The notes: generated from the letters alone by a model not told the origin. DNA of 32,000 nt from Psychrobacter cryohalolentis K5 (GCF_000013905.1 NC_007969.1:30001-62000); one strand, 5' to 3'. Shown: positions 849 to 26,053, numbered from the stretch's first letter. Program-made: numbers and translations.

Positions 849-963
849 GACAGGCTTCCTTGTTATTTTATGAGGAGTTTTGCATGACTCACTTTAGCAA
901 AGCTGGATGGCGTGCGTGTTAGATATTGTTTATTTAGTTGCTGAATAGGAAGGTTGGTTTTTG

Positions 964-1033
964 ACTACAAAGTTGTAGTTAAAAAATTTGACTACGATTT
1001 TGTAGTTAAGTATTATGACTATAAATTTGTAGT
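964..1033 (+). promoter_or_regulatory. Three operator/iteron-like 16-bp palindromes (ACTACA-N4-TGTAGT) with exact 27-bp phasing
   Basis: ACTACAAAGTTGTAGT at 964-979 (perfect 6+6 arms), ACTACGATTTTGTAGT at 991-1006 (one arm mismatch), ACTATAAATTTGTAGT at 1018-1033 (one arm mismatch). The third copy extends to TGACTA...TAGTCA at 1016-1035. Starts are 27 bp apart, and the last copy ends 17 nt before the ATG at 1051. Confidence 0.7.
988..1016 (+). promoter_or_regulatory. Putative sigma70 promoter of the ATPase cassette
   Basis: TTGACT (988-993), a 17-nt spacer, then TATTAT (1011-1016). The -35 lies inside the second repeat unit, and palindrome 3 covers the -10/start region. AAGGA Shine-Dalgarno at 1039-1043. 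Confidence 0.55.
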
Positions 1034-1050
1034 CAACTAAGGATAAAAAG

Positions 1051-2241
1051 ATGAGTACAGGGAACATAGTGACAGGTGATAATTATTTTCCAAGACCTAC
1101 TGATGAAAATAAGCTATGGAGACATTTGTCAGATGGTGCTCATGTTCTATTGCTGGCACCTAGACGAGTAGGAAAGTCTTCAATGATTACTCATATTAAA
1201 GATCAACCAAAATCAGGTTATGCAGTTATATATGTTTTCGTGCAAGCTTGTGATAATGAGCAGAGCTTTTATCAAAAAATGCTACGTGAAATCTATCGTT
1301 CTGACCATATTAAAAAATCTGAAAAGATAAAGAGTAAGCTCTCAGAGTGGGCAAAAGGTATTAATTTTAGCTTGTCAGTTAGTCCAACGAACATCGAAGC
1401 TGGGTTAGGTAAAGAAAAGGGTGAGACCAAAATAATTACTCATGAAATGATTCGAGATGTACTGTATGAGAGCCTGAAATTGAGTGAAGAGACCATCATT
1501 ATTGCAATTGATGAATTCCCTGATGTACTGGAGAAAATATCTGATGAACATGGTAAAAGAGGTGTAGAGCAGTTTTTATCGGGTATTCGCGCACTGTGTC
1601 AAGACCCTGAGTTCAACGAAAAAGTTCAGTTTATCTTAACAGGCTCGATAGGGTTAGATACATTAGCAGAAAAATTGGCAGTTACCGACTTAATTAATAT
1701 GTTGGTGAATATGAGTGTTCGCCCTTTTAAAGACGATCGAGCAGTAGAATTTATAGACTTTTACATTAATAAGCACTGTTCAGAAGTTATTCTAGATATA
1801 GAGACTAAGCAAGCAATCATCGATGAAGTAGGTTGGAATATGCCCTACTATTTAGGGCTAGTATGTGAGCAGCTTATTGAAATATTTGATGAAGAAGAAC
1901 GTCAAATCGAGCATAGCGATGTAAAGGTAGCTATCAACAGTTTGTTTAGTCCAGCAATGAAAACCGTCTTTTCTCATTGGCGTGATAGATTAAACCGTCT
2001 AGAAAAAATTGAACGCCATTATGCTCAACAAGTTTTAGATTTGGTAAGCAAAACAGATACTAGCGTGGTCCATGGAGAGTTATTTAACCTGTCGCAACAT
2101 ATTGACTTTAAAGATCAAGTGAATAGCAGATATGTCATTAACTGCCTTTTACACGATGGTTATCTTTATCAACCAGAAGACAGTACTTATCAATTTACTT
2201 CTCCTTTACTAAAACGTTGGTGGACTCGTTATGGAAAATAA
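1051..2241 (+). CDS. P-loop NTPase, Arch_ATPase (ATPase_2)-like AAA+ with C-terminal winged-helix/DUF234-like region
   Basis: 396-aa ORF with an AAGGA RBS. Walker A LLLAPRRVGKSS (nt 1156-1182), Walker B IIIAIDEF (nt 1495-1518), sensor-like FILTGS. The C-terminal segment YAQQVLDLVSK...VINCLLHDGYLYQ...YQFTSPLLKRWW resembles the wHTH tail of archaeal-type ATPases. Family assignment is from motif recall, not from a search. Confidence 0.8.
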   Translation: MSTGNIVTGDNYFPRPTDENKLWRHLSDGAHVLLLAPRRVGKSSMITHIKDQPKSGYAVIYVFVQACDNEQSFYQKMLREIYRSDHIKKSEKIKSKLSEWAKGINFSLSVSPTNIEAGLGKEKGETKIITHEMIRDVLYESLKLSEETIIIAIDEFPDVLEKISDEHGKRGVEQFLSGIRALCQDPEFNEKVQFILTGSIGLDTLAEKLAVTDLINMLVNMSVRPFKDDRAVEFIDFYINKHCSEVILDIETKQAIIDEVGWNMPYYLGLVCEQLIEIFDEEERQIEHSDVKVAINSLFSPAMKTVFSHWRDRLNRLEKIERHYAQQVLDLVSKTDTSVVHGELFNLSQHIDFKDQVNSRYVINCLLHDGYLYQPEDSTYQFTSPLLKRWWTRYGK

Positions 2242-4309
2242 TAATATAAAAAGCCATTCAGTCTTACTTTATAACACGCAAAATATAGATGCTCAGCTAC
2301 TAAAAGCAGGATTTAGTATTCGCAAAAAAGAATACCAACGCATCTGGAAGGATATTCAAACGAGTAAAATGGCTCATCCAGAGACCCATTATCTTATTCA
2401 AGGCGTAAGAGGCGCAGGTAAAACTACTTTATTATCTCGTCTTTCCTATGAAGTTGCAGAAGACAAGAAATTAAGCGAATGGTTGATACCTATTTTATTG
2501 AATGAAGAAGAGTACGGTATATTATCGCTATTTACTTTTTGGCTACGTATTGCTGAAAAGCTAGCAGAATATGATGCTCAGTTATATTCAGAGCTTTTTC
2601 AACAAGTCTTGAGCTTAGACGATGATGCGGTAGTTGCTTGGGAGCTTATACAGCATTACTTAGATAAAAATAAGCAAAAAATTATCGTTTTTGTCGATAA
2701 TCTAGGAGAGTTATTTAAGGATTTTGATAAAGTTGAGCATGCTCAACTGCGTGAAGTATTGAGTCTTCATCCGCATATTCGTCTTATCGGTGGTTCAAGC
2801 CAATCACTAGAAGCACACTTCGATGTATCGGCTCCGTTCTACCAGTTTTTTAAACTGATAAACCTTAAGTCAATAGATGAAACGGACATGCATGAACTAC
2901 TGCGCTCTCTAGCGACACAAACTGGAGAAGAAGCAGTCAAAACGATTGAAGAAATTATTACTGAGTACCCTGAACGTATTGAAGCGGTAAGGCGGCTAAC
3001 TGACGGTGTACCTCGTACTATTGTATTGCTATTTCAAATTATTATGGAGGGAGCGAAAGAGAGTAGTTACGCCTACTTAGAAGAAACGATCGATAAGACT
3101 ACACCATTGTATAAACATCGAATGGATGACCTATCACGCCAGCAAAAAGCAATTGTACATGCTATCGCTATGAACTGGGATGCGATGAGTACCAAGGAAA
3201 TCTCTGAGCAAACTCGTTTGCCAAGCAAGACAGTATCTGCGCAATTGGTAAAGCTACAACAGCAATGGATAGTTGATAAAATTGAGACTAATACCAAGAA
3301 CCATCTTTACATTATTAGAGAGCGGTTTTTTAATATTTGGTATTTGATGCGTTATGGTAGTCAGACGGATAAGCGCCGTGTTTTATGGCTTACTAGATTT
3401 TTAGAGAGTTGGTATGATAAGAATGAGTTGAATATAAAGCTGGTTGAAATAGCTATACCTTATATAGATTTAAATGGTGCTGACGGTTTTAAGTTGCAAA
3501 GAACTAAAGAGGTATATATAAACGCTTTGCTAGCCAGTGAGCATATAGACGAAACTCTAAAGGCGAGCGTAAATATTTTCTTAAAACCATACTACAGCAA
3601 CTTAATTAGATCTGAAGAATGGGAGGTTTATAAAGTTAATCTTGAAAACTGTTTTTTAAATATAGAACTTAAAAGATATAAGGAGGCAAAACGTAATATT
3701 GAAGAAGTACTAAAATTAGATATTGGTTCTGCTCAAAATTTAATAATATTAGAAGTTGTTTATGAGTTTTTTAATGAAGATGAAGAGTTAAAGAACAAAG
3801 TAATTTCTAATATTCTTCAAGAATCAGCAAAGTCTTCAATGAGTCGTTTAATGCTATTAGTAAACATAGTTGATATGGATTATGAGAGTTCTAAGAATGT
3901 TGGTCGGATAATAGTTAATGAAACAACGTCAGAAGCAAAGCTTGATAGTGCTATATTTATGGCTTTTCAAGCATATATACAATTATGGTTCGACGAATTC
4001 GAAGATTTAGAAAGTAGTTTAGAGACACTAAGAAATAATAATCTTGTCTTTGAGGAAGGTGGAATGTTCCTAACTTTATTTGAAAATTTCCTAGTTCTTC
4101 TAATTCAGAAGAATCAGTTAGAAATAGCTTATGGACTTATGGACGAATTCATCCATCTAAAAGAGCAGTTTAAACCTATCTACTACGCCCTAGTGTCTCT
4201 ACTCAAAGATGAACGCCGACAAGAATATCTGCGTATGGGTCCAGAGTTACAAGGAACAGTAGATGAAATATTACAAAATGTCGAAGAGTATCGGGTTAAA
4301 TACTCTTAG
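2231..4309 (+). CDS. STAND/AAA+-like NTPase with central winged-helix and C-terminal helical-repeat (TPR-like) domain
   Basis: 692-aa ORF whose ATG overlaps the stop of the upstream gene by 11 nt (2231-2241). Walker A GVRGAGKTTLL (nt 2402-2428), Walker B-like IIVFVDN (nt 2681-2701), sensor-like RLIGGS, GxP-like TDGVPRTIVLL. wHTH-like LSRQQKAIVHAIAMNWDAMSTKEISEQTRLPSKTVSAQLVKLQQQWIV (about nt 3128-3325). Residues 400-692 are all-helical and repeat-like (e.g. LKRYKEAKRNIEEVLKLD). Confidence 0.8.
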   Translation: MENNNIKSHSVLLYNTQNIDAQLLKAGFSIRKKEYQRIWKDIQTSKMAHPETHYLIQGVRGAGKTTLLSRLSYEVAEDKKLSEWLIPILLNEEEYGILSLFTFWLRIAEKLAEYDAQLYSELFQQVLSLDDDAVVAWELIQHYLDKNKQKIIVFVDNLGELFKDFDKVEHAQLREVLSLHPHIRLIGGSSQSLEAHFDVSAPFYQFFKLINLKSIDETDMHELLRSLATQTGEEAVKTIEEIITEYPERIEAVRRLTDGVPRTIVLLFQIIMEGAKESSYAYLEETIDKTTPLYKHRMDDLSRQQKAIVHAIAMNWDAMSTKEISEQTRLPSKTVSAQLVKLQQQWIVDKIETNTKNHLYIIRERFFNIWYLMRYGSQTDKRRVLWLTRFLESWYDKNELNIKLVEIAIPYIDLNGADGFKLQRTKEVYINALLASEHIDETLKASVNIFLKPYYSNLIRSEEWEVYKVNLENCFLNIELKRYKEAKRNIEEVLKLDIGSAQNLIILEVVYEFFNEDEELKNKVISNILQESAKSSMSRLMLLVNIVDMDYESSKNVGRIIVNETTSEAKLDSAIFMAFQAYIQLWFDEFEDLESSLETLRNNNLVFEEGGMFLTLFENFLVLLIQKNQLEIAYGLMDEFIHLKEQFKPIYYALVSLLKDERRQEYLRMGPELQGTVDEILQNVEEYRVKYS

Positions 4310-4318
4310 ATAAAACAA

Positions 4319-4355
4319 AGGTCATAACTCAGTTCCAAAGAATAAGTTATGACCT
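4319..4355. terminator. Hairpin shared by the convergent ATPase cassette and the DsrE-like gene
   Basis: Perfect 11-bp stem aggtcataact (4319-4329) / agttatgacct (4345-4355) with a 15-nt loop. On the minus strand it is followed by a T-rich tract (ctttgtttta). There is no T-run on the plus strand. Confidence 0.55.
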
Positions 4356-4385
4356 CTCAGATTCAAAATTACTCAACTTCAAATA

Positions 4386-4763
4386 CTAATTCAACTGCAA
4401 CGACCCTTTTGCGTTCATCAACAGCTCAACCACATCATCCCCACTAATGACCGTGAAGCGCTTATCAATGGCTGATTCTTCTACGCCACCATGTTTCATA
4501 CACGCGCCGCAAACCAATACTTGACCGCCTTTTTCGATAAAGGCTTCTAGTAATTCGCCAGCAGGTTCAAAGGGATCGCCAATATCGACATTATCTAAAG
4601 CGTTTGGCAATGCCAAATGCACCGCGTCCACCATCAATATGACTGATGCAGAGTGACCTTTTTTAAGTGCCACACCCGCCATAGTAAAAGCTAAGGTGAT
4701 CTTGCTTGGGTTTGACTCACTATTATCAAACAGCGTACCGACATAATCCGTATTATTAACCAT
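4386..4763 (-). CDS. DsrE/DsrF-like sulfur-relay family protein
   Basis: 125 aa. The layout ...KITLAFTMAGVALKKGHSASVILMVDAVHL...VLVCGACMKHGG... matches the DsrE-like fold pattern (recall-based). Confidence 0.65.
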   Translation of the reverse strand: MVNNTDYVGTLFDNSESNPSKITLAFTMAGVALKKGHSASVILMVDAVHLALPNALDNVDIGDPFEPAGELLEAFIEKGGQVLVCGACMKHGGVEESAIDKRFTVISGDDVVELLMNAKGSLQLN

Positions 4764-5008
4764 ATTATTTTCCTTTATTAGACTGTTTCTAATTGGATAG
4801 TATTCAGTTGAGTATAAAACTCACTACTATCCTAGCATTGATTATATTTATTTATATAATGTATTGTTAGCAAACAGTAGTTATAAGGTTAACTGATTGT
4901 GAATAGCTGTCTATGAAAAAATTGATCATGACAAGTGGATTTTGACGAAGCACTGCGATGTAAATGGTTAAATAATCAGTCCTTATTTTGAGGTAAGCCT
5001 AGCAAAAC

Positions 5009-5551
5009 CTAAGATTGTGGCGGCCATGGACGGTCGGCATCACTGACAATCCATTCTGCCACATAGCCGCTCGGCGGTAGCTGCCAATCCGATTGGTCTA
5101 AGGCTGCCAGTACTCGTGCCGTCTCGATGACCTTACCGCCTTTGGTGACGCCTGTACGTAGTAGTGCCGACGAGCAAGGCTTGCCTTTTACCCACATCGA
5201 TTGCTCAATATATATCCAGCGCTCATCGAAGCCGACGATTTTGGTCTTCATGGTGACTTTTTCAAAAGCACGAATACGTTTGCGATATTGGATGGTACTA
5301 CCAGCCACGACCAAGCCCCAACGCTGTCTAAGCAATTGAGTGCCGAGCCCGCTCCGTACTGCAAAGTCGGTACGCCCCATATCATAAAGGGTCAGCACGC
5401 GACCATTATTCATTTCCAAGAAATTATCAATATCTGTCAGACGGCAGCGAAAGGTAATCTCACTGGTTTCTTTGAACGTTAAAGTATTGCCTTTTTTCAC
5501 TTGCAGCGCGGCATGGGCGATGGTGCTGGCGTAACGGATAAATGGATACAT
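5009..5551 (-). CDS. Hotdog-fold acyl-CoA thioesterase family protein
   Basis: 180 aa. The pattern TFRCRLTDIDNFLEMNNGRVLTLYDMGRTDF...VVAGSTIQYRKRIRAFEKV is typical of thioesterase-like hotdog proteins. Confidence 0.6.
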   Translation of the reverse strand: MYPFIRYASTIAHAALQVKKGNTLTFKETSEITFRCRLTDIDNFLEMNNGRVLTLYDMGRTDFAVRSGLGTQLLRQRWGLVVAGSTIQYRKRIRAFEKVTMKTKIVGFDERWIYIEQSMWVKGKPCSSALLRTGVTKGGKVIETARVLAALDQSDWQLPPSGYVAEWIVSDADRPWPPQS

Positions 5552-5603
5552 AAAGCAGTCTCAAAATATTTAAAGATAAAAACGATGTTTTTTATTTTAT
5601 AAT

Positions 5604-6656
5604 TTATCTAATTTTATTAGATGGCACGCCAATATGATTAAAGTAGGCACTCACGGTTTCAGGTATCCAGTTGATGTCAAACTTTGATTTTTTACTTGGA
5701 GTTTTTACATTGCTATTGCTTGTACGATAACGCAAATAGCCGATATGACCCCCGTGTGCCGTATCTAATATGGTGACACTGTCTGAGACATCATTGGGCG
5801 TGGCAGTAAAGCCAATAAAGGGATCGTCTTTGGCGCTAATAAGCAACAGCGGGCGTGTGACATTCCTTAAGTGAGGTAGGGCAGAGGAGGAGCGGTAGTA
5901 ATCATTATTAGAGCGGTAACCATGCCTAGGCGCAGTGAAGATATTATCAAAATCGCTAATGCGTTTTACCGCTTTGATAGAAGCAATCTCGTCTGCGGTA
6001 ATTTCATTTGCTAAGGCTTTTTTGATAATCGGATTGAGTAAATAAGGGGTATAGATACGATGACTCAAAAAGCTATGCATCGTAATAGCAGCCGATGACA
6101 TATCAACTGGCGCAGATATTACCGCTGCGCCGTCGCATAGCGCCTCATCACCATATTCACCCATATACTTTGCCAAGGCATTACCGCCAAGTGACACGCC
6201 AACCCCATAGATATGGGCGTAATTCTCATGCAAGTTCTCTAACATATGATGCACCTCGCCCGTGTCACCAGCGTTATAAAACACTTTGCCATTAGCGGGA
6301 ATACCACCGCAACTGCGAAAGTGAGCGACGACAAAATGCCAGCCTTGCGCATGCATCTGATATGCCAAGGCACGCGCATAATGACTGTCACTGCTGCCTT
6401 CCATCCCATGAAAAAGTACGATTAATGGTGTTTGTTCAAGTTTGCCATTTTCTAAATCTTGGACAGGATGAGCATCATAAAAGTCATAAGCGATATCAGT
6501 TTCGCAAAGTGAGTCTTGTTTAATCACGCGTCGGTAATTCGGTGTTTTTGGCGCAAAAAACTTCGGTAAAATACTTTGCAAGTGCGGATTGGTGAGCCAA
6601 AACGGCGGTTTAAAAGGGGCAGGTGCGAATGGTTTTGTCGACTTTGAGGTTGGCAT
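5604..6656 (-). CDS. yheT: Alpha/beta-fold hydrolase, YheT family
   Basis: 350 aa. NPHLQSILPKFF, PLIVLFHGMEGSSDSHY, nucleophile elbow GVSLGGN, SAKDDPF and HGGHIGYL are collinear with E. coli YheT as I recall it. Confidence 0.7.
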   Translation of the reverse strand: MPTSKSTKPFAPAPFKPPFWLTNPHLQSILPKFFAPKTPNYRRVIKQDSLCETDIAYDFYDAHPVQDLENGKLEQTPLIVLFHGMEGSSDSHYARALAYQMHAQGWHFVVAHFRSCGGIPANGKVFYNAGDTGEVHHMLENLHENYAHIYGVGVSLGGNALAKYMGEYGDEALCDGAAVISAPVDMSSAAITMHSFLSHRIYTPYLLNPIIKKALANEITADEIASIKAVKRISDFDNIFTAPRHGYRSNNDYYRSSSALPHLRNVTRPLLLISAKDDPFIGFTATPNDVSDSVTILDTAHGGHIGYLRYRTSNSNVKTPSKKSKFDINWIPETVSAYFNHIGVPSNKIR

Positions 6657-15619: not shown

Positions 15620-16174
15620 TTAAGAGTTTGCTGGCTGTGGCTCTTTTTCCGCCACTTGCTCGCCTTGTTTTTCACGTATTTTAAGGACTTTACGCACCTT
15701 ATCACGCGCACGTGTCTGTTTCAAACGCGACAAATAATCGACGAAAATCACCCCATTCAGATGATCCATTTCGTGTTGGATGCAAACGGCAAGTAAGCCT
15801 TCTACTTCTTCATCAATCTTATTGCCATTCTCATCTAGTGCTTCGATACGCACTTTGTTTGGGCGCTCAACTTTGTCATAGACGTCTGGCACGGACAGAC
15901 AACCTTCTTCATACGGCTGCTTTTCTTCAACCAATGGCGTTACTTTGGGATTGATAAACACTCTTGGGCTGTCTTTATCTTCTGATAAATCCATCACGAT
16001 AAGCTGGATATGGTGATCCACTTGGCTTGCAGCCAGACCGATACCTTGCGCATCGTACATGGTCTCAATCATATCGGTGATTAAGGTTTTGATTTCAGCA
16101 GTGACTTCCTTGACAGGCGTTGCAATCGTACGCAGACGCGGGTCGGGATAGCTTAAAATAGGGAGTAACGCCAT
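15620..16174 (-). CDS. def: Peptide deformylase
   Basis: Trimmed to the ATG at 16174 with a [24 protein letters not shown], and motifs [13 protein letters not shown] and QHEMDH. Charged C-terminal tail. Confidence 0.92.
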
Positions 16175-16409
16175 AAGGCTCACCTCAATGATAAAGATAA
16201 AAAATAGGTTTGATATTATAAGATAAATGGGGACAAAAGTAATGCTTATCAATAGCTAAAGCGAGATATCCTGACTGATAAATATAAGAAAAATATAGTA
16301 ATAATGTATTGATAGAGGAATTTGAAACAATAAAAAAGGCCTTGATTGCACAAGACCTTTATTTTATGTATTCGTTATTGAAATGTATTAGCTGTTTAGC
16401 TGTGTCCAA

Positions 16410-16664
16410 TTATACGCGACGTTTACTCATAATCATCTCATAGATGAACAGTAATATAATCGCACCAATTACTGAGAAGATTAGACCAGTGAAACCGCCA
16501 TCAGCATTGATACCAATTAGGCCAGCAACAAAACCACCAAGCATCGCACCAACGATACCCAATACAATCGTCATAATCCAACCCATAGGATCGCTACCTG
16601 GCTTAATCGCACGTGCCAATAAACCTGCAACCAGACCAACAATAATCATCCAAATAAAGCTCAT
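16410..16664 (-). CDS. GlsB/YeaQ/YmgE-family small stress membrane protein
   Basis: 84 aa, glycine-rich TM helices MSFIWMIIVGLVAGLLARAI...IVLGIVGAMLGGFVAGLIG. Confidence 0.75.
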   Translation of the reverse strand: MSFIWMIIVGLVAGLLARAIKPGSDPMGWIMTIVLGIVGAMLGGFVAGLIGINADGGFTGLIFSVIGAIILLFIYEMIMSKRRV

Positions 16665-16920
16665 ATCAATTCTCCTAAAGTGTCTATCATTTATAATGGT
16701 TTACTTATTTTGTTGAATCCATTGTAAACATTATCGAGATCAAGAAATAAGCAAAAAATGTTACCTATGTATGGGCTCTGTGAGGAAAAAGCGATATTTG
16801 CTATTTAGCAGGGGAAATAGGTAAACGGGGTGTTACAAAGGTAGTAAAGTCGCTAATGAAATGACTATATCTCTCTATAAAAGTAAAAATATTTTTTTAT
16901 AGGTATAAAAAGAAATAAAC

Positions 16921-16951
16921 AGGCGTAGCTCATTATTAATGAGCTACGCCT
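16921..16951 (-). terminator. Rho-independent terminator after mpl
   Basis: aggcgtagctcat / atgagctacgcct 13-bp stem. A T-rich tract follows on the minus strand. Confidence 0.7.
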
Positions 16952-16978
16952 GTTATTCTACAGGGTTATAGAGCCAGA

Positions 16979-18496
16979 CTAACTATTAGCTAAAGCGGTT
17001 ACTAAACGCTGATGAATACCTTCAAAGCCGCCATTAGACATAATCACAATCGCATCACCAGCCTTGGCATATGTGCAAATATGAGTAATGATATCTTCTA
17101 CGCTAGAGAGTACCTGTTGGCTGCCAATATCTGGATTTGCGATAGTGGCATTATTAATGACTTCTTTTAGACCCCACTCAAGTCCTGTCGGCTCATACCA
17201 TAAGGTATGATCGGCGAGAGCAGCAGACTCAGCCAAGCTGTCTTGATGAATGCCCATTTTCATGGTATTACTACGTGGTTCAATAATTGCCCACAGTCGT
17301 CTATCAGCTAGCTTTTTCTTAGCACCATCCAAAGTAGTCGTAATTGCCGTTGGATGATGAGCGAAATCATCAAAGACCAAGATATCATTTACATTACCTA
17401 TAAGCTCCATCCGACGTTTAATACCGGCAAATGCTGATAACGCCGCACAGGCAGTTTTAACACTGACACCGATGTTATAAGCCGCTGCGACAGCAACCAA
17501 GGCGTTATTCACATTGTGAATGCCGCTCATCGACCAATCGACGACTCCCGTGGCTTCTTTATCAGCAATATCAGCCGCAAAACTAACAGCAAATTGACCA
17601 CCATCTTCGCTGATAAGTTCAGCTTGCCAATCGCTACTATCTTTTACATGCTTATCTTTTGCGTAGGTATTATCTGTTGCATGAGTATTATGTGCCGCTG
17701 AGTCCAATACTGCTGTCCGCCAAACGGGTGTCCAAACACCTTTCGCTAACGTTTCCTCTAAGCTGGCAGTCGCTGTGGGCATAATGATTTTGCCAGTGCT
17801 TGGAATCATGCGCACCATATGATGAAATTGGGTCTGAATAGCATCAAGATCCGCAAAAATATCCGCATGATCAAATTCAAGGTTATTTAAAATAGCCGTA
17901 CGCGGACGATAATGTACGAACTTTGAACGCTTATCAAAAAATGCAGAATCGTATTCATCTGCTTCGATAACGAAATAGCCAGTATTTGCCGAATCGTCAT
18001 TATCAATTTTGTCAGCACCCAAATAACTGCTGTGAGCAAAGACTTGCTGCAAGTGTGCATCAGCAGTATCAACAAGTGGCACACCACCGATTAAAAACCC
18101 AGTGTCGATACCGGCATAGTGCAGTATCCACGCGAGCATGGTCGTCGTCGTGGTCTTGCCATGAGTACCTGCCACTGCGATGACATGGCGAGATTGCAAT
18201 ACTTGCTCAGATAAAAACTGGGGTCCAGAGGTATAGCGTAGACCTGTGTCCAGCATATATTCGATGACATCCATACCGCGCTTCATGGCATTACCAACCA
18301 CGACTAGATCTGGTGCTGGTTGCAAATGCTCTACCAGATAGCCTTGCTCAATGGTCACGCCCGCGTTTTCCAGTTGGGTGGACATCGGCGGATAAACGTT
18401 GGCATCTGAGCCCGTGACCGTATGTCCAAGCTCGCGCGCTAGCAATGCCAGTGAGCCCATAAAAGTACCACAAATACCAAGAATATGAATATGCAT
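16979..18496 (-). CDS. mpl: UDP-N-acetylmuramate:L-alanyl-gamma-D-glutamyl-meso-diaminopimelate ligase (murein peptide ligase)
   Basis: 505 aa. MHIHILGICGTFMGSLALLARELGHTVTGSDANVYPPMS, GTHGKTTTT, EADEYDSAFFDKRSKFVHY and DDFAHHPTA are collinear with E. coli Mpl, with two extra loops. Confidence 0.9.
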   Translation of the reverse strand: MHIHILGICGTFMGSLALLARELGHTVTGSDANVYPPMSTQLENAGVTIEQGYLVEHLQPAPDLVVVGNAMKRGMDVIEYMLDTGLRYTSGPQFLSEQVLQSRHVIAVAGTHGKTTTTTMLAWILHYAGIDTGFLIGGVPLVDTADAHLQQVFAHSSYLGADKIDNDDSANTGYFVIEADEYDSAFFDKRSKFVHYRPRTAILNNLEFDHADIFADLDAIQTQFHHMVRMIPSTGKIIMPTATASLEETLAKGVWTPVWRTAVLDSAAHNTHATDNTYAKDKHVKDSSDWQAELISEDGGQFAVSFAADIADKEATGVVDWSMSGIHNVNNALVAVAAAYNIGVSVKTACAALSAFAGIKRRMELIGNVNDILVFDDFAHHPTAITTTLDGAKKKLADRRLWAIIEPRSNTMKMGIHQDSLAESAALADHTLWYEPTGLEWGLKEVINNATIANPDIGSQQVLSSVEDIITHICTYAKAGDAIVIMSNGGFEGIHQRLVTALANS

Positions 18497-23051: not shown

Positions 23052-25043
23052 ATGATCGAATTTAAAGACGTTGGTGTTCGCCGTGATGGTCGTGAGTTGT
23101 TTGCAGGGGCAAGCTTCCAGCTACATCCGGGCCACAAAGTTGGCTTAACGGGCAATAACGGCACCGGCAAATCAACCTTGTTTGCCTTATTATTGACGCG
23201 TATGGGCACTGGCGATACCGAAGTGACGCTAGATAAAGGCGAAGTGAATATTCCTGATAGCTGGCATGTGGCGCATATGGCGCAGGAAGTTGGCGCGACC
23301 ACACAGACGGCGATTGATTACGTGCTAAGCGGTGATGAGCAGTGGTACGAGATTAACGCTACTTTGAATGATTTAAGCAGTGTCAGTGATGAGCAAATCG
23401 GTGTGCTACATCAGCAGTTTGATGAAATCGATGGCTATCGTACCCCAACCAAAGCGGCACAAATCATGGCGGGTCTTGGTTTTAATACTAGCCAACATGA
23501 ATTGCCAGTAGAAGGGTTTTCTGGTGGCTGGCGTATGCGTCTAAACCTTGCTAAGACCTTGATGAGCCGCGCTGACTTAATGCTACTTGATGAGCCAACC
23601 AACCATTTGGATTTGGATGCTATTCTTTGGCTTGAGACTTGGATTAATGCCTTTACTGGTTTAGTCATCGTCATCTCGCATGACCAAACTTTCTTAGATA
23701 ATACTGTCGGTCATATTTTGCACGTTGAGCAGCAAAAAATCACCCTTTATACAGGTAACTATCAACAGTTTATTCGTACCCGTCATGAGCGTATGGCGCA
23801 GCAGCAGCAAGCGTTTGAGAAGCAAGAAGCGACCAAAGCACATTTGGATGACTTTATTCGTCGCTTCCGTGCAAAGGCTAGTAAAGCCAAGCAAGCACAG
23901 AGCCGTATTAAGCAGCTTGAGCGTATGGCGGAGCTGTCTCCGATGATGGCGGATAACCCGTTCTCGTTCCGCTTTTATGAGCCGGCAAATATGAGCTCGC
24001 CATTGATTGAGTTGACCGATGCGGATATTGGTTATAGCGACACGCCGCTACTTTATAATGCAAACGTACAAGTCACTCCTGATACTCGTATTGGGCTGCT
24101 TGGAATGAATGGCGCTGGTAAGTCGACCTTGATTAAAGCTTTGGTCGGTGAGCTTGGCGTATTAAAGGGCAGCTATAACGTTTCTGATACGCTAAAGCTT
24201 GGCTACTTTAACCAGCATCAAATGGATATTCTTGATCCGAAGGCAACGCCGATAGAGATGTTGCGTCGTTTGGCAGGTAAAACGTCTGATGCGATGTTAC
24301 GCTCGTTTTTGGGTAGCTTTGATTTCCGTGGCGACCGTATCGATACCATAAGCGAGCTATTTTCTGGTGGTGAGCGTGCGCGCTTAACATTGGCTTTGAT
24401 TGTTTGGCAACGTCCGAACGTGCTGGTACTCGATGAGCCAACCAACCATTTAGACCTACAAATGCGCCAAGCACTGACCATTGCTTTGCAGGGCTTTGAA
24501 GGGGCAGTGGTATTGGTATCGCATGACCGTGAATTGATTGCCAACGTCTGTGATGAGCTGTTTTTGGTACATGATGGACAAATCGATGAGTTTGATGGTG
24601 ATATAAGCGATTATGGTAAATGGCTTGCCGAAAAGCGTAAGCAGGAAAATTCACAAGATAAAAATACCAGTAAGAAAAAAAGCAAAAAAGAGAGTAAGAA
24701 GTTTGTTTCACGTGAAACAGATGCTAATTCAGTAGGTAGCCAAGCAAGCAAGCAAGTGGGTAAAGATGCGCAGCGCAAGCTGGCCGCTGAACAACGCAAA
24801 TTAACAGCGCCTATTCGCCGTGATATTGAAAATACAGAAAAGACCTTGGCAACAATTGATGGAAAGCTGCTGGTGTTAGAAGAAAAGCTGGCGAATACGG
24901 ATCTTTATGAAGAAAGTCGTAAGGCTGATTTGATGATACTGCTGAATGAGCAAACCGCGCTACAGCAGCAACATAGTCAACATGAAGAAAAATTGCTACT
25001 GGCAATGACAACCTTAGAAGAAATGGAAGCCAATATCGGCTAA
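23052..25043 (+). CDS. yheS: ABC-F family ATPase (YheS-type)
   Basis: 663 aa. Two ABC cassettes (GNNGTGKST / LSGGWRMR / LLDEPTNHLD and GMNGAGKST / FSGGERAR / VLDEPTNHLD), an inter-domain linker, and a K/E-rich coiled C-terminal extension. No TM partner gene. Confidence 0.85.
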   Translation: MIEFKDVGVRRDGRELFAGASFQLHPGHKVGLTGNNGTGKSTLFALLLTRMGTGDTEVTLDKGEVNIPDSWHVAHMAQEVGATTQTAIDYVLSGDEQWYEINATLNDLSSVSDEQIGVLHQQFDEIDGYRTPTKAAQIMAGLGFNTSQHELPVEGFSGGWRMRLNLAKTLMSRADLMLLDEPTNHLDLDAILWLETWINAFTGLVIVISHDQTFLDNTVGHILHVEQQKITLYTGNYQQFIRTRHERMAQQQQAFEKQEATKAHLDDFIRRFRAKASKAKQAQSRIKQLERMAELSPMMADNPFSFRFYEPANMSSPLIELTDADIGYSDTPLLYNANVQVTPDTRIGLLGMNGAGKSTLIKALVGELGVLKGSYNVSDTLKLGYFNQHQMDILDPKATPIEMLRRLAGKTSDAMLRSFLGSFDFRGDRIDTISELFSGGERARLTLALIVWQRPNVLVLDEPTNHLDLQMRQALTIALQGFEGAVVLVSHDRELIANVCDELFLVHDGQIDEFDGDISDYGKWLAEKRKQENSQDKNTSKKKSKKESKKFVSRETDANSVGSQASKQVGKDAQRKLAAEQRKLTAPIRRDIENTEKTLATIDGKLLVLEEKLANTDLYEESRKADLMILLNEQTALQQQHSQHEEKLLLAMTTLEEMEANIG

Positions 25044-25103
25044 TACCGTGAGGTTTTTATCAATTAGTTGTTAATCGAAACCAAGCGATAAAACTCAGTC
25101 ATT

Positions 25104-25136
25104 AAAAAAGGGAAGGCTTACGCCTTCCCTTTTTTT
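25104..25136. terminator. Bidirectional rho-independent terminator
   Basis: aaaaaagggaaggc ttac gccttcccttttttt between convergent genes. Confidence 0.85.
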
Positions 25137-25147
25137 ACTTTATTGCC

Positions 25148-25510
25148 TTACTCTCTACGATATCGACCATCACCATAAGATAGGATTTCCATCGTAGTAG
25201 TACAAAGCTGACAGTTTATTTGACCAGCAGCAGCTTTAGATAAATCAAGGATGCGACCTCGTATAAAAGGTCCTCTATCTGTAATTTTCACAATCACACT
25301 CTGCTTTGTCTTTTTGTTGGTCACTTGTACCTTCGTACCAAACGGCAGCGTTCTATGTGCGGCTGTCAGGGAGTTCATATTGAAGATACTACCACTTGCC
25401 GTGCGCTTACCGTGGAACTTGCTACCGTAGTAGCTGGTATTACCGGCGAAAGCAGTGGCGCTCAATAGTATTGATAAAGTGATGACTAAAGACTTGATTA
25501 AATAAGACAT
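25148..25510 (-). CDS. Small secreted RlpA-like double-psi beta-barrel (DPBB) protein
   Basis: 120 aa, signal peptide ending TAFA. SYYGSKFHGKRTASGSIFNMNSLTAAHRTLPFGTKVQVTN...VKITDRGPF is the RlpA/DPBB_1 signature. Confidence 0.8.
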   Translation of the reverse strand: MSYLIKSLVITLSILLSATAFAGNTSYYGSKFHGKRTASGSIFNMNSLTAAHRTLPFGTKVQVTNKKTKQSVIVKITDRGPFIRGRILDLSKAAAGQINCQLCTTTMEILSYGDGRYRRE

Positions 25511-26053
25511 TTAAAACCTTTTGGCTATTGAAGAAATAGACAGATACTCTTGCCTATGTTATGCATACTCCCTATGAGTACAAATAATATAAAACATCAT
25601 ACAAGAAATAACTTTTCACATTCTTACAGCTCTGTAAAAAAACTCTTTAGGTCAAAAATGCTTTTTTAACAGTAAGTTATGATATATATACCTATTTTGC
25701 TATATTTAGATTGCTGTCAATATAAACAATTTATTGGTCGATTCTCTCATTATAAAATCAGTTAAAAGTAAAAATTTTTCGTATTAAATAGTATGTTTCA
25801 GAGAAAAATATCCTTTGCATACTACTATCTGCCTAGCAGAGACGATAATAATGTATAGCAAGTGCACGGTATCGCTTTTAAGTTGAATCCCCTATATTGG
25901 TAATATTTCTATAATGGTATTTGGTTTTTTTAGCGCTATCATTATAAGTAGACTAGGGTCACAATCTGTTATATCGCCAACCTAATTTCGATTACTAGCG
26001 TTTACAATTGGCATTTCATTATTATTAATAGATCTTATTTTGAGGAACATAAC

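Follow-up and report, generated by a model that had tools for sequence, protein, structure and literature searches.

Can two overlapping genes whose products look like nucleoside triphosphatases, and which come without any recognizable effector, form a conflict, defence or regulatory module? This question was raised by a locus in the 32,000-nt stretch of Psychrobacter cryohalolentis K5 DNA analysed here (the window), where the original prediction, made from the sequence alone, had proposed a coupled pair of paralogous P-loop NTPases with winged helices. The two same-strand reading frames, their 11-nt overlap (ATG of gene 2 at 2231, TAA of gene 1 at 2239-2241) and the quoted motifs were all present, and the motifs were conserved in homologs (Table 1). 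The flanks were also as described, with an NMO gene in opposite orientation on one side (PF03060, 5.5e-67) and a DsrE-like gene convergent with gene 2 on the other (PF02635, 2.6e-12). RNA folding of the hairpin between the convergent genes gave -16.3 kcal/mol (z -4.87), a stability that none of 200 shuffles equalled; its U-tract is on the minus strand, and a simple terminator scan missed it. The GC content of the cassette was 0.33-0.37 compared to ~0.43 in the flanks. No nuclease, TIR, SIR2, protease or transmembrane effector was found in either protein using Pfam, PADLOC, NCBIfam and fold searches, and no third recurring gene was present at homologous loci, as had been claimed.

Table 1. Coordinates of the features of the locus, counted from the first nucleotide of the window
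Feature	Position	Strand	Description
Candidate operator array	961..1036		three 22-bp palindromes; repeat search, TRF
O1	961-982		22-bp palindrome, TTGACTAC-N6-GTAGTYAA
O2	988-1009		22-bp palindrome, TTGACTAC-N6-GTAGTYAA
O3	1015-1036		22-bp palindrome, TTGACTAC-N6-GTAGTYAA
Best sigma-70-like promoter match	988..1016	+	consensus scan, 10/12; pattern match only
Gene 1	1051..2241	+	396 aa; ATPase-lid-winged-helix (NOD), sensor-less
Overlap of gene 1 stop and gene 2 start	2231..2241	+	11 nt; translational coupling
Gene 2	2231..4309	+	692 aa; NOD, helical-repeat sensor and C-terminal cap
Gene 2 NOD	2231..3430	+	residues 1-400; Walker A, Walker B, GVPRT, winged helix
Gene 2 repeat sensor	3431..4030	+	residues 401-600; TPR-like helical, hypervariable
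Gene 2 C-terminal helical cap and stop codon	4031..4309	+	residues 601-692; KPxYYA...LRMGxEL..TVxEI
Hairpin, likely terminator	4319..4355		between convergent gene 2 and DsrE-like gene

Judged from their sequences, the two proteins are paralogous at the profile level only. Alignment of the two families gave an hhalign probability of 96.8% (E 2.5e-10, 329 columns), whereas BLASTP yielded no significant match (best E 0.28), so that the predicted paralogy stood at the first level and failed at the second. The predicted common architecture was seen in both AlphaFold models (pLDDT 90.5 for gene 1 and 82.1 for gene 2), which consist of NBD, helical lid and winged helix, the tripartite NOD layout of STAND proteins, followed in gene 2 alone by ~300 aa of helical repeats. 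The suspected relation to PF01637 (ATPase_2) was found for both proteins, with 26.8 bits for gene 1 and 30.0 bits for gene 2, neither of which reaches the gathering threshold of 33.2; many orthologs carry precomputed PF01637 matches, and the gene 1 family profile matches 2fna at 1.1e-7. Both proteins are thus divergent relatives rather than formal members of PF01637. The best fold matches were 2qen, ORC/Cdc6 and the NODs of NLRs and MalT for gene 1, and 6mfv (a STAND-TPR protein), 2qen, Apaf-1 and ORC4 for gene 2; the combined matches include 6mfv, Apaf-1, NLRC4, NRC and MalT. Both proteins contain a NOD of the PF01637/ORC-Cdc6/STAND type, and since the ORC/Cdc6 fold scores equal the STAND ones, the fold does not place the pair on the STAND rather than the ORC side. 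In each protein, Walker A starts after only about 35-50 residues, and the effector domain expected at one end of a STAND protein was present in neither.

Searches for a named family gave little. The nSTAND2 Pfam model did not match, and nSTAND1, nSTAND3 and nSTAND5 matched weakly, below cut-off. PADLOC v2.0, a check that the original prediction had suggested, assigned the pair to no defence family and returned only marginal P-loop/wHTH matches (mad8 at 4.6e-6 over 56 residues; CARF/Csa3 wHTH). Nothing in NCBIfam 20.0 came near its cut-off: NF053860, which represents protein 1 of DS-41 (DefensePredictor; described in PMC13092281), scored 16.8 bits against a cut-off of 370, in the N-terminal P-loop region alone. 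The pair is undescribed in Pfam, PADLOC, NCBIfam and the searchable literature, and no known defence or regulator family claims it.

Both P-loops are intact. In gene 1, Walker A (APRRVGKSS, residues 36-44, 1156-1182) is followed by a Walker B (IIIAIDEF, residues 149-156, 1495-1518) with a canonical D-E pair, D154-E155, and by the conserved sensor-like motif ILTGS. R15, APRRxGK, DE, GSI and R313 are invariant across gene 1 homologs, and a W-x-x-P is conserved. In gene 2, Walker A (GVRGAGKTT) occupies residues 58-66 (2402-2428), and IIVFVDN (residues 151-157) opens a Walker B of the form IIVFVD-N-LG-E at 2681-2701. This replacement of D-E by D-N-x-x-E is new here; among 49 non-redundant orthologs, at least 90% had kept D-N and the E at +4. 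The motif may be a NACHT-like extended Walker B, not an inactive site. LIGGS and TDGVPRTI were also present and conserved in gene 2 homologs, GVPRT being a conserved GxP-type motif, and an equivalent invariant Arg was observed in both proteins (R180 in gene 1, R174 in gene 2).

The predicted STAND-like layout of gene 2, with a repeat sensor on the C-terminal side, was supported. Its sensor region is all-helical in the AlphaFold model, in line with the TPR-like repeats proposed earlier, but Pfam recognized no TPR in the Psychrobacter protein; bona fide TPR/Sel1 matches occur in gene 2 orthologs from other genera. The sensor is hypervariable in sequence and length (orthologs total 517-1222 aa). 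Despite this, the cap behind it is conserved between genera and was detected in 75 of 79 orthologs.

About 10 Psychrobacter species hold the pair at the same chromosomal site, with flanks that are about 90% identical. There, the gene 2 sensor falls into discrete allele classes with a mutual identity of 21-28%, and the discrete alleles of gene 1 are shuffled independently of those of the gene 2 sensor, around the conserved NOD between them. This independent shuffling is new here. Presence at one site in all relatives, with host-like composition, had been named as speaking against a conflict module; such a common site indeed exists, but the cassette is low in GC, its alleles are highly divergent and shuffled, and pseudogenes occur occasionally.

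Beyond Psychrobacter, the pair was found in at least 579 species genomes from many phyla, the family forming 1285 clusters at 50% identity and occupying 64 independent flanking contexts. The small gene preceded the large one on the same strand in 79 of 90 homologous loci, the remainder being cut by contig ends or pseudogenised; pseudogenised copies were observed at loci L019 and L043. Conserved across phyla, the genes overlapped by 14 nt at 32 loci and by 11 nt at 19, and a mirror-tree comparison of gene 1 and gene 2 gave r = 0.86, where permutation reached at most 0.22. The two genes are paired far more often than chance would allow. They form an obligate operon with translational coupling, which passes from phylum to phylum as one unit with its own cis-element. 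Plasmid copies were also found, including one on Moraxella plasmid pNP7-2 and one on a Clostridium plasmid, where it sits between two rep genes. In one member of the family, a fusion with a ParA/MinD-like ATPase was seen. The cassette was absent from the phage and viral collections searched, and no co-transferred target genes were found across the 64 contexts.

The genomic context did not establish the conflict or defence label of the original prediction. Clear defence islands surrounded the pair on pNP7-2 (neighbours Qat, KAP NTPase, methylase and IS), at locus L017 (PDC-S01, SoFic, MTase and PRTase) and at locus L007 (SduA_C and TIR-WD40), but the majority of the 64 independent contexts had housekeeping flanks. 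Over the pooled set of 400 flanking ORFs from 62 independent loci, PADLOC matches were sparse, and many were generic look-alikes (IscS, sigma-54 activators, UvrD and DinG).

The DNA-binding output suggested earlier for the winged helices gained sequence support from a feature that the first reading had not seen, namely, the phased palindromes upstream of gene 1. TRF described this array with a period of 27 and 2.7 copies, and no further copy of the motif was found within the 32-kb window. The left half of O2 doubles as the -35 element of the best promoter match, TTGACT (988-993), and the -10 element of this match, TATTAT (1011-1016), lies at the O2/O3 junction. The array was present in all Psychrobacter/Moraxella loci, where 94.6% of cells were complementary in register compared to 21-53% when slid. 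Across phyla it consists of 2-5 palindromes, TTGACAA-N8-TTGTCAA, with an exact 27-bp spacing, as in Marinomonas, which likewise has three sites at 27 nt. Three or more sites were detected in 37 of 88 loci but in 4 of 440 shuffles, and 44 of the 88 loci surpassed all 264 shuffles. The sites have dyad symmetry and cover the promoter at a distance of 20-90 bp from the start codon. When metagenomes were scanned with the DNA pattern alone, 35 arrays were retrieved; a gene-1 homolog followed immediately downstream in 22 cases, and the other 13 arrays were not next to the pair. Such a deeply conserved, phased candidate operator array over the promoter is new here and would imply autoregulation through a winged helix.

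The putative operator reader is probably the winged helix of gene 2 (3128-3358, residues about 300-376; recognition helix SKTVSAQL, wing ERFFNIWYLMRYG). Indeed, this wHTH was nearly invariant, with at least 90% of the 49 non-redundant pairs having kept it, whereas exposed positions in the recognition helix of the gene 1 winged helix (at about 2005-2238) varied in the same set, and an SK-to-TN change in the gene 2 helix coincided with operator-core changes in Runella and locus L074. Profile searches gave weak MarR/ArsR/Csa3-type matches for it, and some database entries label gene 2 homologs 'MarR family regulator'. It is the sole HTH of gene 2, which has no LuxR-, ArsR- or OmpR-type DNA-binding domain. 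A predicted link between the gene 2 'SKT' motif and TAC-type operators held only in part, in Marinomonas, so that gene 2 is a tentative choice for the DNA-binding subunit.

Taken together, we tentatively favour an NTP switch of the NLR/STAND-ORC kind that consists of two proteins, would repress itself and spreads horizontally, likely serving genetic conflict, with DNA binding and oligomerization as its output and no enzymatic effector. Dimers of gene 2 would read the operators via the winged helix and hold the operon repressed at rest. Gene 1, made in fixed ratio, would co-assemble with gene 2 by NOD-NOD contacts and, being sensor-less with a canonical D-E, might serve as a helper, a motor or a timer. 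Once the variable sensor has captured its ligand, the NOD would flip to an ATP-bound open state, and this state could alter DNA occupancy, with derepression and possibly wider binding of TTGAC-type DNA; alternatively, the mixed oligomer itself could be the output. The conflict part is suggested by the hypervariable sensor, the recombined discrete alleles, the pseudogenes and the island settings of pNP7-2, L017 and L007, and the mobile-unit part by the spread over phyla, the 64 contexts, the plasmid copies, the low GC of the cassette and the 1285 clusters. As there is no effector domain or third gene, any mechanism of killing or arrest is purely hypothetical. Several observations argue against conflict: the mostly housekeeping flanks with their sparse, often generic PADLOC matches; the absence from phage and viral collections, in which many defence systems do occur; the stable retention at one site in about 10 Psychrobacter species; and the nature of the closest solved fold, 6mfv/PH0952, which like MalT is a transcription factor.

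We prefer such a conflict-type sensor switch to a pair of STAND transcription factors resembling MalT and PH0952, which is possible but less probable. Here, the TPR region would sense a metabolite or protein, the pair would repress its own promoter and control a host regulon via TTGACAA-N8-TTGTCAA, and gene 1 would serve as co-regulator or anti-activator. The overlap of array and promoter, the MarR/ArsR/Csa3-type matches and 'MarR family regulator' labels of gene 2, the best structural match to a predicted STAND transcription factor (6mfv) with MalT also among the matches, and the mostly housekeeping flanks are consistent with this notion, and the 13 of 35 pattern-found arrays away from the pair suggest that other targets may exist. 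However, the pair moved between phyla into 64 contexts without co-transferred targets, the 32-kb window holds no extra operator site, and a hypervariable sensor with allele shuffling at a fixed locus would be unusual for a housekeeping regulator. Moreover, the dedicated LuxR- or ArsR-type domain of MalT/PH0952 is missing, and the obligate second NOD would be left without a reason.

A more specific form of the conflict reading, which we consider unlikely, is a widespread effector-less bacterial immune pair of a sensor NLR and a helper NOD, in which the hypervariable repeat sensor would recognize a protein of the invader and an ATP-driven hetero-oligomer would then act directly on DNA. The oligomer would quit its own operators and either occupy TTGAC(A)-type sites, which are sigma-70 -35-like, or coat DNA, resulting in transcriptional shutdown or blocked replication of the invader. 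If true, this would be a STAND immune output without an enzymatic effector, bridging ORC/Cdc6 DNA binding and NLR signalling.

It is improbable that the pair is selfish, either an addiction-like or maintenance module or else an abortive switch with runaway ATP hydrolysis or DNA coating by the oligomer as its sole 'effector'; it would then persist since its loss or derepression does harm, and not for defending the host. The tight autorepression architecture, the plasmid copies (one between two rep genes in the Clostridium plasmid), the effector-less design with one canonical ATPase and a patchy distribution that fits horizontal transfer would agree with it, but no toxin-like component was found, pseudogenised copies occur without obvious penalty, and the large hypervariable sensor is hard to account for. 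Even less credible is an ORC/Cdc6-like initiator pair, with both proteins loading onto the array, which would serve a mobile element as an iteron-like replication origin or partition site. Archaeal origins have repeated phased binding sites beside the gene, both proteins find some of their best fold matches in ORC/Cdc6 (one being the Orc1-1/Orc1-3 heterodimer on origin DNA, 2qby), plasmid copies lie near rep genes and one member carries the ParA/MinD-like fusion. Nevertheless, most copies are isolated two-gene chromosomal inserts among housekeeping genes with no other mobile-element functions, the dyad-symmetric sites, at 20-90 bp from the start codon, are placed exactly on the promoter, a TPR sensor is unexpected in an initiator, and the cassette is absent from viral contigs. 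It is least probable of all that the palindromes act as RNA hairpins in a 5' leader (for attenuation or stability) and that the winged helices are purely structural, as in most STANDs: an 8-bp stem is possible at each site and G:T (24) exceeds A:C (5) at the degenerate third position, but the half-site TTGACAA is itself conserved across phyla beyond pairing, G:T accounts for only 45 of the 171 mismatches between arms, the strict 27-bp phasing is left unexplained, the best promoter match inside the array would leave O1 and O2 untranscribed, and the stems are A/U-rich and weak.

How does the pair compare with known systems? By analogy, NAIP-NLRC4, plant paired NLRs and NRC helpers also combine a sensing NOD with a sensor-poor NOD partner, and the fold searches also returned the NODs of NRC, NLRC4 and Apaf-1; this likeness to eukaryotic pairs is that of the NOD fold alone, and eukaryotic helpers have executioner domains and no DNA operator, unlike the pair. 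With Avs/bNACHT proteins it shares a STAND-like NTPase, a large, fast-evolving helical-repeat sensor on the C-terminal side, horizontal mobility and an occasional defence-island location. Those systems, however, carry an effector domain (nuclease, protease, TIR, SIR2 or others) or an adjacent effector gene, and the pair, which has neither, is further set apart by the lack of a PADLOC/NCBIfam model match. For antiviral STAND NTPases, Lee et al. (2026; PMC13581612) distinguish 589 clades. Section 15 of Kaur et al. (2021; PMC8195603) describes nSTAND2 as a mobile two-gene operon of paired STANDs with a predicted hetero-multimer. In common with our pair, nSTAND2 has two STAND-type NTPases, a conserved Arg and one partner with a non-canonical NTP site, but it belongs to a Dap3/CR-ATPase-like family, and in its inactive partner the NTP motifs are eroded and a GT4 or HEPN effector is fused, whereas here the P-loops are intact and effectors absent. 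The variable module of the pair is the repeat sensor, unlike the fused effectors of nSTAND2.

Archaeal Orc1/Cdc6 proteins, such as the Orc1-1/Orc1-3 heterodimer on origin DNA (2qby), resemble the pair in their AAA+-like NBD, lid and winged helix, the latter binding repeated dyad-containing boxes beside the gene, and in the cooperation of two paralogs. They differ in that the pair forms small chromosomal or plasmid inserts in bacteria, with promoter-overlying sites and a sensor in gene 2, and no link to replication was found. The best sequence and fold relatives of both proteins are the archaeal-type ATPases of PF01637 (2qen, PABY2304; 2fna, SSO1545), whose N-terminal F..R motif, G/A-x-RR-x-GK[ST] P-loop, NBD, lid and C-terminal winged helix recur in the pair. 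Those archaeal members with solved structures are encoded by single genes with no assigned function, and the searchable literature reports neither a paired operon nor a repeat sensor nor an operator array for them, in contrast to the paired operon seen here. Finally, P. horikoshii PH0952 (6mfv) and E. coli MalT have, like gene 2, a NOD followed by a helical-repeat sensor, and their logic, a ligand-controlled ADP/ATP switch with a DNA-binding output, can be likened to that of the pair. PH0952 has a separate N-terminal ArsR-like effector domain and MalT a C-terminal LuxR-type one, neither of which the pair possesses, and both act as single proteins, whereas here a second NOD protein is obligatory. 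Unlike their separate domains, the likely DNA reader of the pair is the NOD's own winged helix.

We read two same-strand open reading frames in the sequence, as in the original prediction: gene 1, which encodes the small NOD protein (NBD, helical lid and winged helix), and gene 2, which encodes the large NOD protein with its repeat sensor. The frames overlap by 11 nt (...TAT GGA AAA TAA of gene 1 against ATG GAA AAT AAT of gene 2). The flanks were also as described, with a divergent NMO gene on one side and a convergent DsrE-like gene on the other, beyond which lie thioesterase, alpha/beta-hydrolase and UPF0029/YigZ genes. The closest protein and locus matches of the cassette were found in Psychrobacter sp. 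72-O-c, P. cibarius and P. immobilis. The GC content of the cassette is 0.33-0.37, compared to ~0.43 in its surroundings; two further 1-kb bins of the window are as low, against the same typical value. A stable hairpin between the two convergent genes was not called by a simple terminator scan. Because its T-rich tract is on the minus strand, it is probably the terminator of the DsrE-like gene, and it may serve both directions.

Coordinates of features in the window and in homologous loci (L numbers, fetched loci)
Feature	Location	Strand	Remarks
Gene 1	window 1051-2241	+	ORF, 396 aa
Gene 2	window 2231-4309	+	ORF, 692 aa
Operator array	window 961-1036		directly upstream of gene 1; three tandem 27-bp units; dyads; TRF period 27
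Hairpin	window 4319-4355		between convergent gene 2 and DsrE-like gene; 11-bp stem, -16.3 kcal/mol, z -4.9
Low-GC bin	window 16001-17000		GC 0.366
Low-GC bin	window 25001-26000		GC 0.352
Decayed copy, Psychrobacter sp. WY6	L019:10662-13233		gene 1/gene 2 pieces of 318, 249 and 246 aa
Fragmented pair	L043:11149-13642		several short ORFs
Pair on Clostridium tagluense plasmid pCM008-C	L091:9989-12749		between two annotated replication-initiation genes
PDC-S01-type P-loop proteins, 376-400 aa	L017:8306-9505; L032:11284-12411	-; +	adjoin pair; PADLOC E 1e-139 to 1e-152
Orphan array	L109:279-327		ORF 387-1907
Orphan array	L102:6487-6535		ORF 4141-6450(-)
Orphan array	L112:333-381		ORF 525-1511
Orphan array	L120:11723-11771		
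Orphan array	L103:53-101		

The top Pfam match of both products was PF01637 (ATPase_2), slightly under the gathering score, followed by weaker P-loop matches to AAA_22, AAA_16, NACHT, NPHP3_N and nSTAND1/3/5. The two proteins had been called paralogous, and BLASTP of one against the other found no similarity. Profile-profile comparison of the two family alignments, however, gave 96.8% probability (E 2.5e-10, 329 columns) and ran to the C-terminal segment 'F.SP.L..WW.RYG' of gene 1 and 'ERFFNIWYLMRYG' of gene 2. Since it aligns the whole of gene 1 with gene 2 residues ~20-380, the products are, judged by their profiles, remote paralogs sharing one common module. The AlphaFold models were confident (pLDDT 90.5 for gene 1 and 82.1 for gene 2) and bore out the proposed architecture: both consist of NBD, lid and winged helix, gene 2 adds ~300 residues of helical repeats, and neither model contains a further domain. 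In Foldseek searches of the PDB, gene 1 matched the archaeal PF01637 protein 2qen first, then ORC/Cdc6 and the NODs of NRC, Apaf-1, CED-4 and MalT. Gene 2 matched the archaeal STAND-TPR protein 6mfv first, then 2qen, Apaf-1, ORC4 and NLRC4. The gene 1 family profile also matched 2fna, another archaeal PF01637 protein (1.1e-7). A nuclease hidden in the gene 1 C-terminus, which we had presumed might be of the DUF234 or PD-(D/E)XK type, was rejected, as model and alignment hold only lid and winged helix.

The motifs previously quoted for each protein were all found and are kept in homologs. The gene 1 family alignment retains an invariant N-terminal Arg (R15), APRRxGK[ST], a canonical Walker B (D154-E155), GSI(G) and R313. 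The gene 2 family keeps a GxRGxGKT P-loop, and the D156-N157 of its Walker B is invariant, as is E160 four positions later (in at least 90% of the 49 non-redundant orthologs, drawn from many phyla). The extended Walker B of NACHT proteins reads D-G-x-D-E; because the D-N-x-x-E of gene 2 resembles it, we do not call this site inactive. An Arg occupies the equivalent aligned position in both proteins (R180 in gene 1, R174 in gene 2). The winged helix of gene 2 is nearly invariant, with recognition helix SKxVSAQL and wing KNxLY...ERFFNIWYLMR, and the region that follows is highly variable in length and sequence, orthologs totalling 517-1222 aa. The repeats, first described as TPR-like, are indeed helical in the gene 2 model; some orthologs have no recognisable TPR and others more than 15 TPR/Sel1 repeats. 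Conservation returns in the C-terminal cap (~90 residues), present in 75 of 79 orthologs. One family member, P0251 (739 aa), carries a ParA/MinD-like ATPase domain (AAA_31/CbiA, KGGVGRT) N-terminal to a complete gene-1-type module, which would be either a rare fusion or a gene-calling artefact.

A pattern and tblastn scan of one genome per species detected gene 1 relatives in at least 579 species, including Gammaproteobacteria, Campylobacterota, Desulfobacterota, Bacteroidota, Ignavibacteriota, KSB1, Clostridia, Sericytochromatia, Actinomycetota and others. When 1.84 billion representative proteins were searched with a profile, at least 1285 gene 1 clusters at 50% identity emerged (E <= 1e-30), almost all of 385-405 aa. 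A same-strand gene 2 homolog followed gene 1 in 79 of 90 fetched loci, the exceptions being contig ends, a filter artefact (L007) and fragmented genes (L019, L043). The start/stop overlap is conserved as well (-14 nt in 32 loci, -11 nt in 19). Moreover, pairwise identities among gene 1 proteins track those among gene 2 proteins (r = 0.86; at most 0.22 after permutation), with gene 1 evolving faster than the gene 2 NOD in 99% of comparisons. The flanks of the 90 loci represent 64 unrelated contexts, and clustering of the 1002 ORFs in them revealed no third conserved gene or effector, in keeping with the original prediction, only lineage-specific synteny or generic families. Plasmid copies occur in Moraxella osloensis, Clostridium tagluense, C. 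estertheticum, Methylomonas and Segatella. The pair is thus an obligate, translationally coupled, horizontally mobile unit. Carriage by phages was rejected, since searches of GenBank phages, protein-pattern scans of IMG/VR and operator scans, including a two-site search of viral contigs, were all empty. On the C. tagluense plasmid pCM008-C, a ParA gene lies near the pair, and in psychrophilic Clostridium chromosomes (C. estertheticum group) the pair has a conserved location close to lexA and a tyrosine recombinase. Hosts of the top matches are often cold-adapted or marine, possibly through sampling bias.

About 10 Psychrobacter species have the cassette at one shared chromosomal location, between flanking genes that are ~80-95% identical. 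Here the cassette is a mosaic: the gene 2 NOD is 84-94% identical, the sensors form discrete classes with 21-28% identity between them, and gene 1 classes are 49-67% identical. Gene 1 and sensor classes are combined independently. Two loci (L012 and L016) share sensors of 97% identity with gene 1 proteins of 49%, and the window and a third locus (L011) share gene 1 proteins of 93% identity with sensors of 26%. The fragmented copies L019 and L043 suggest pseudogenisation in some lineages, or possibly sequencing errors or masked stretches.

The first reading had not seen a conserved operator array, which lies directly upstream of gene 1. Each of its units in the window carries the dyad TTGACTAC-N6-GTAGTYAA, and the rest of the 32 kb contains no further copy of the motif. 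The array overlaps the best sigma-70-like match, whose -35 TTGACT is the left half of the second operator (O2) and whose -10 TATTAT sits at the O2/O3 junction. Three sites are kept in all Psychrobacter loci and in Moraxella, with invariant half-site cores and freely varying central spacers; 94.6% of array positions are complementary in register versus 21-53% when slid. Some changes are symmetric, for example GACTAC...GTAGTC to AACTAT...ATAGTT. Other phyla show the same design, with the consensus TTGACAA-N8-TTGTCAA in 2-5 copies spaced exactly 27 bp apart, the last of them centred ~22 bp ahead of the start codon; Marinomonas, fetched later, has three sites 27 bp apart. At least three sites were found in 37 of 88 loci compared to 4 of 440 shuffles, and the three-site palindrome score exceeded all 264 shuffles in 44 of 88. 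As an independent test of the operator-cassette link, metagenome contigs were scanned with the two-site DNA pattern alone. Of the 35 arrays recovered, 22 stand immediately upstream of a gene 1 homolog. The other 13 (among L095-L128) do not adjoin the gene pair; some precede other genes and others lack a clear ORF. Genes beside these orphan arrays encode a KAP-family P-loop NTPase, a WG-repeat protein, a CAAX/Rce1-like protease and an IS transposase, and a PBECR2 toxin-like nuclease gene lies 176 nt from one. As a route to the missing effector they give a mixed set; each might be a target in trans, what is left of a lost cassette, or a binding site for some unrelated regulator.

The subunit that reads these sites is, we infer, gene 2: its recognition helix is conserved as strongly as the operator, and the exposed positions of the gene 1 helix are variable. 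Where gene 2 has TN instead of SK, in Runella and at one further locus (L074), the operator cores are altered too, and Psychrobacter operators are unchanged though gene 1 diverges to 50% identity. The idea that the inner bases of the operator depend on which residue follows 'SK' was dropped as evidence; its expectation that 'SKT' goes with the TAC variant held only partly, since one of the three Marinomonas sites is TAT-type.

The association of the pair with defence islands is heterogeneous and unproven. A defence setting is seen on the mobilizable M. osloensis plasmid pNP7-2 (recombinase, KAP-like NTPase, QatC/QatD, protein kinase, IS elements, N-6 methylase), at L017 (PDC-S01, SoFic, type II methylase, retron-type PRTase) and at L007 (SduA_C, resolvase, trypsin-like protease, TIR-WD40), whereas most other loci have housekeeping neighbours. 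PADLOC on 400 flanking ORFs of 62 independent loci returned scattered real systems (retron, type I R-M, AriA/AbiLi, PDC candidates) besides many generic look-alikes. Known defence families were rejected for the pair itself, both proteins giving only marginal, local PADLOC and NCBIfam matches. So was PDC-S01, a different ATPase family that neighbours the pair at two loci and to which gene 1 is marginal (E 0.003).

Together, we infer an autorepressed ATP switch. Gene 2 dimers would sit on the operators by way of the NOD winged helix, employed as in ORC/Cdc6, and gene 1, a canonical ATPase without a sensor, would be a stoichiometric partner co-assembling through NOD contacts. Ligand capture by the sensor would then change nucleotide state, oligomeric state and DNA occupancy. 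Its mobility and low GC, the copies on plasmids and in defence islands, the hypervariable sensor, the modular shuffling of alleles and the sporadic decay make us lean, tentatively, towards a role in conflict for such a switch. A MalT/PH0952-like regulator that controls a host regulon is the main rival and somewhat less likely; it is supported by the operator array, the closest solved relatives, which are transcription factors, the mostly housekeeping flanks and the 13 orphan arrays by other genes. An addiction-like module or an ORC-like replication module is less likely still. That the palindromes are RNA hairpins is unlikely, because conservation extends to the half-site sequence itself, the G:T type accounts for only 45 of 171 arm mismatches and the promoter match lies inside the array.

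The pair has a concrete, testable predicted DNA ligand. Since the prediction specifies this ligand down to single base pairs, the system is unusually easy to approach: autoregulation, subunit roles and the effects of ATP and of the variable sensor are directly testable. Formally, the pair falls outside PF01637 and outside every defence family of PADLOC v2.0 and NCBIfam 20.0, and it does not belong to the MalT/LAL regulators, to DS-41 or to nSTAND2, a predicted two-gene paired-STAND system with GT4/HEPN effectors (PMC8195603). No published description was found in a comparison that stopped short of the 589-clade STAND catalogue (Lee et al. 2026). The architecture matches that of a STAND/ORC-type NOD with a repeat sensor. 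Characterised immune STANDs, however, are defined by an effector, which the pair lacks, and STAND regulators have a separate DNA-binding domain and need no second NOD, whereas the pair has no such domain and needs one. The family is large (many phyla) and built differently, from two co-evolving NOD proteins with no effector and an exactly phased, deeply conserved operator array that travels with the genes. An immune role would make it a bacterial pair of sensor and helper NLRs whose output is DNA binding; as a regulator, it would define a new class of mobile STAND switches of transcription, whose NOD winged helix itself reads DNA in the manner of ORC/Cdc6.
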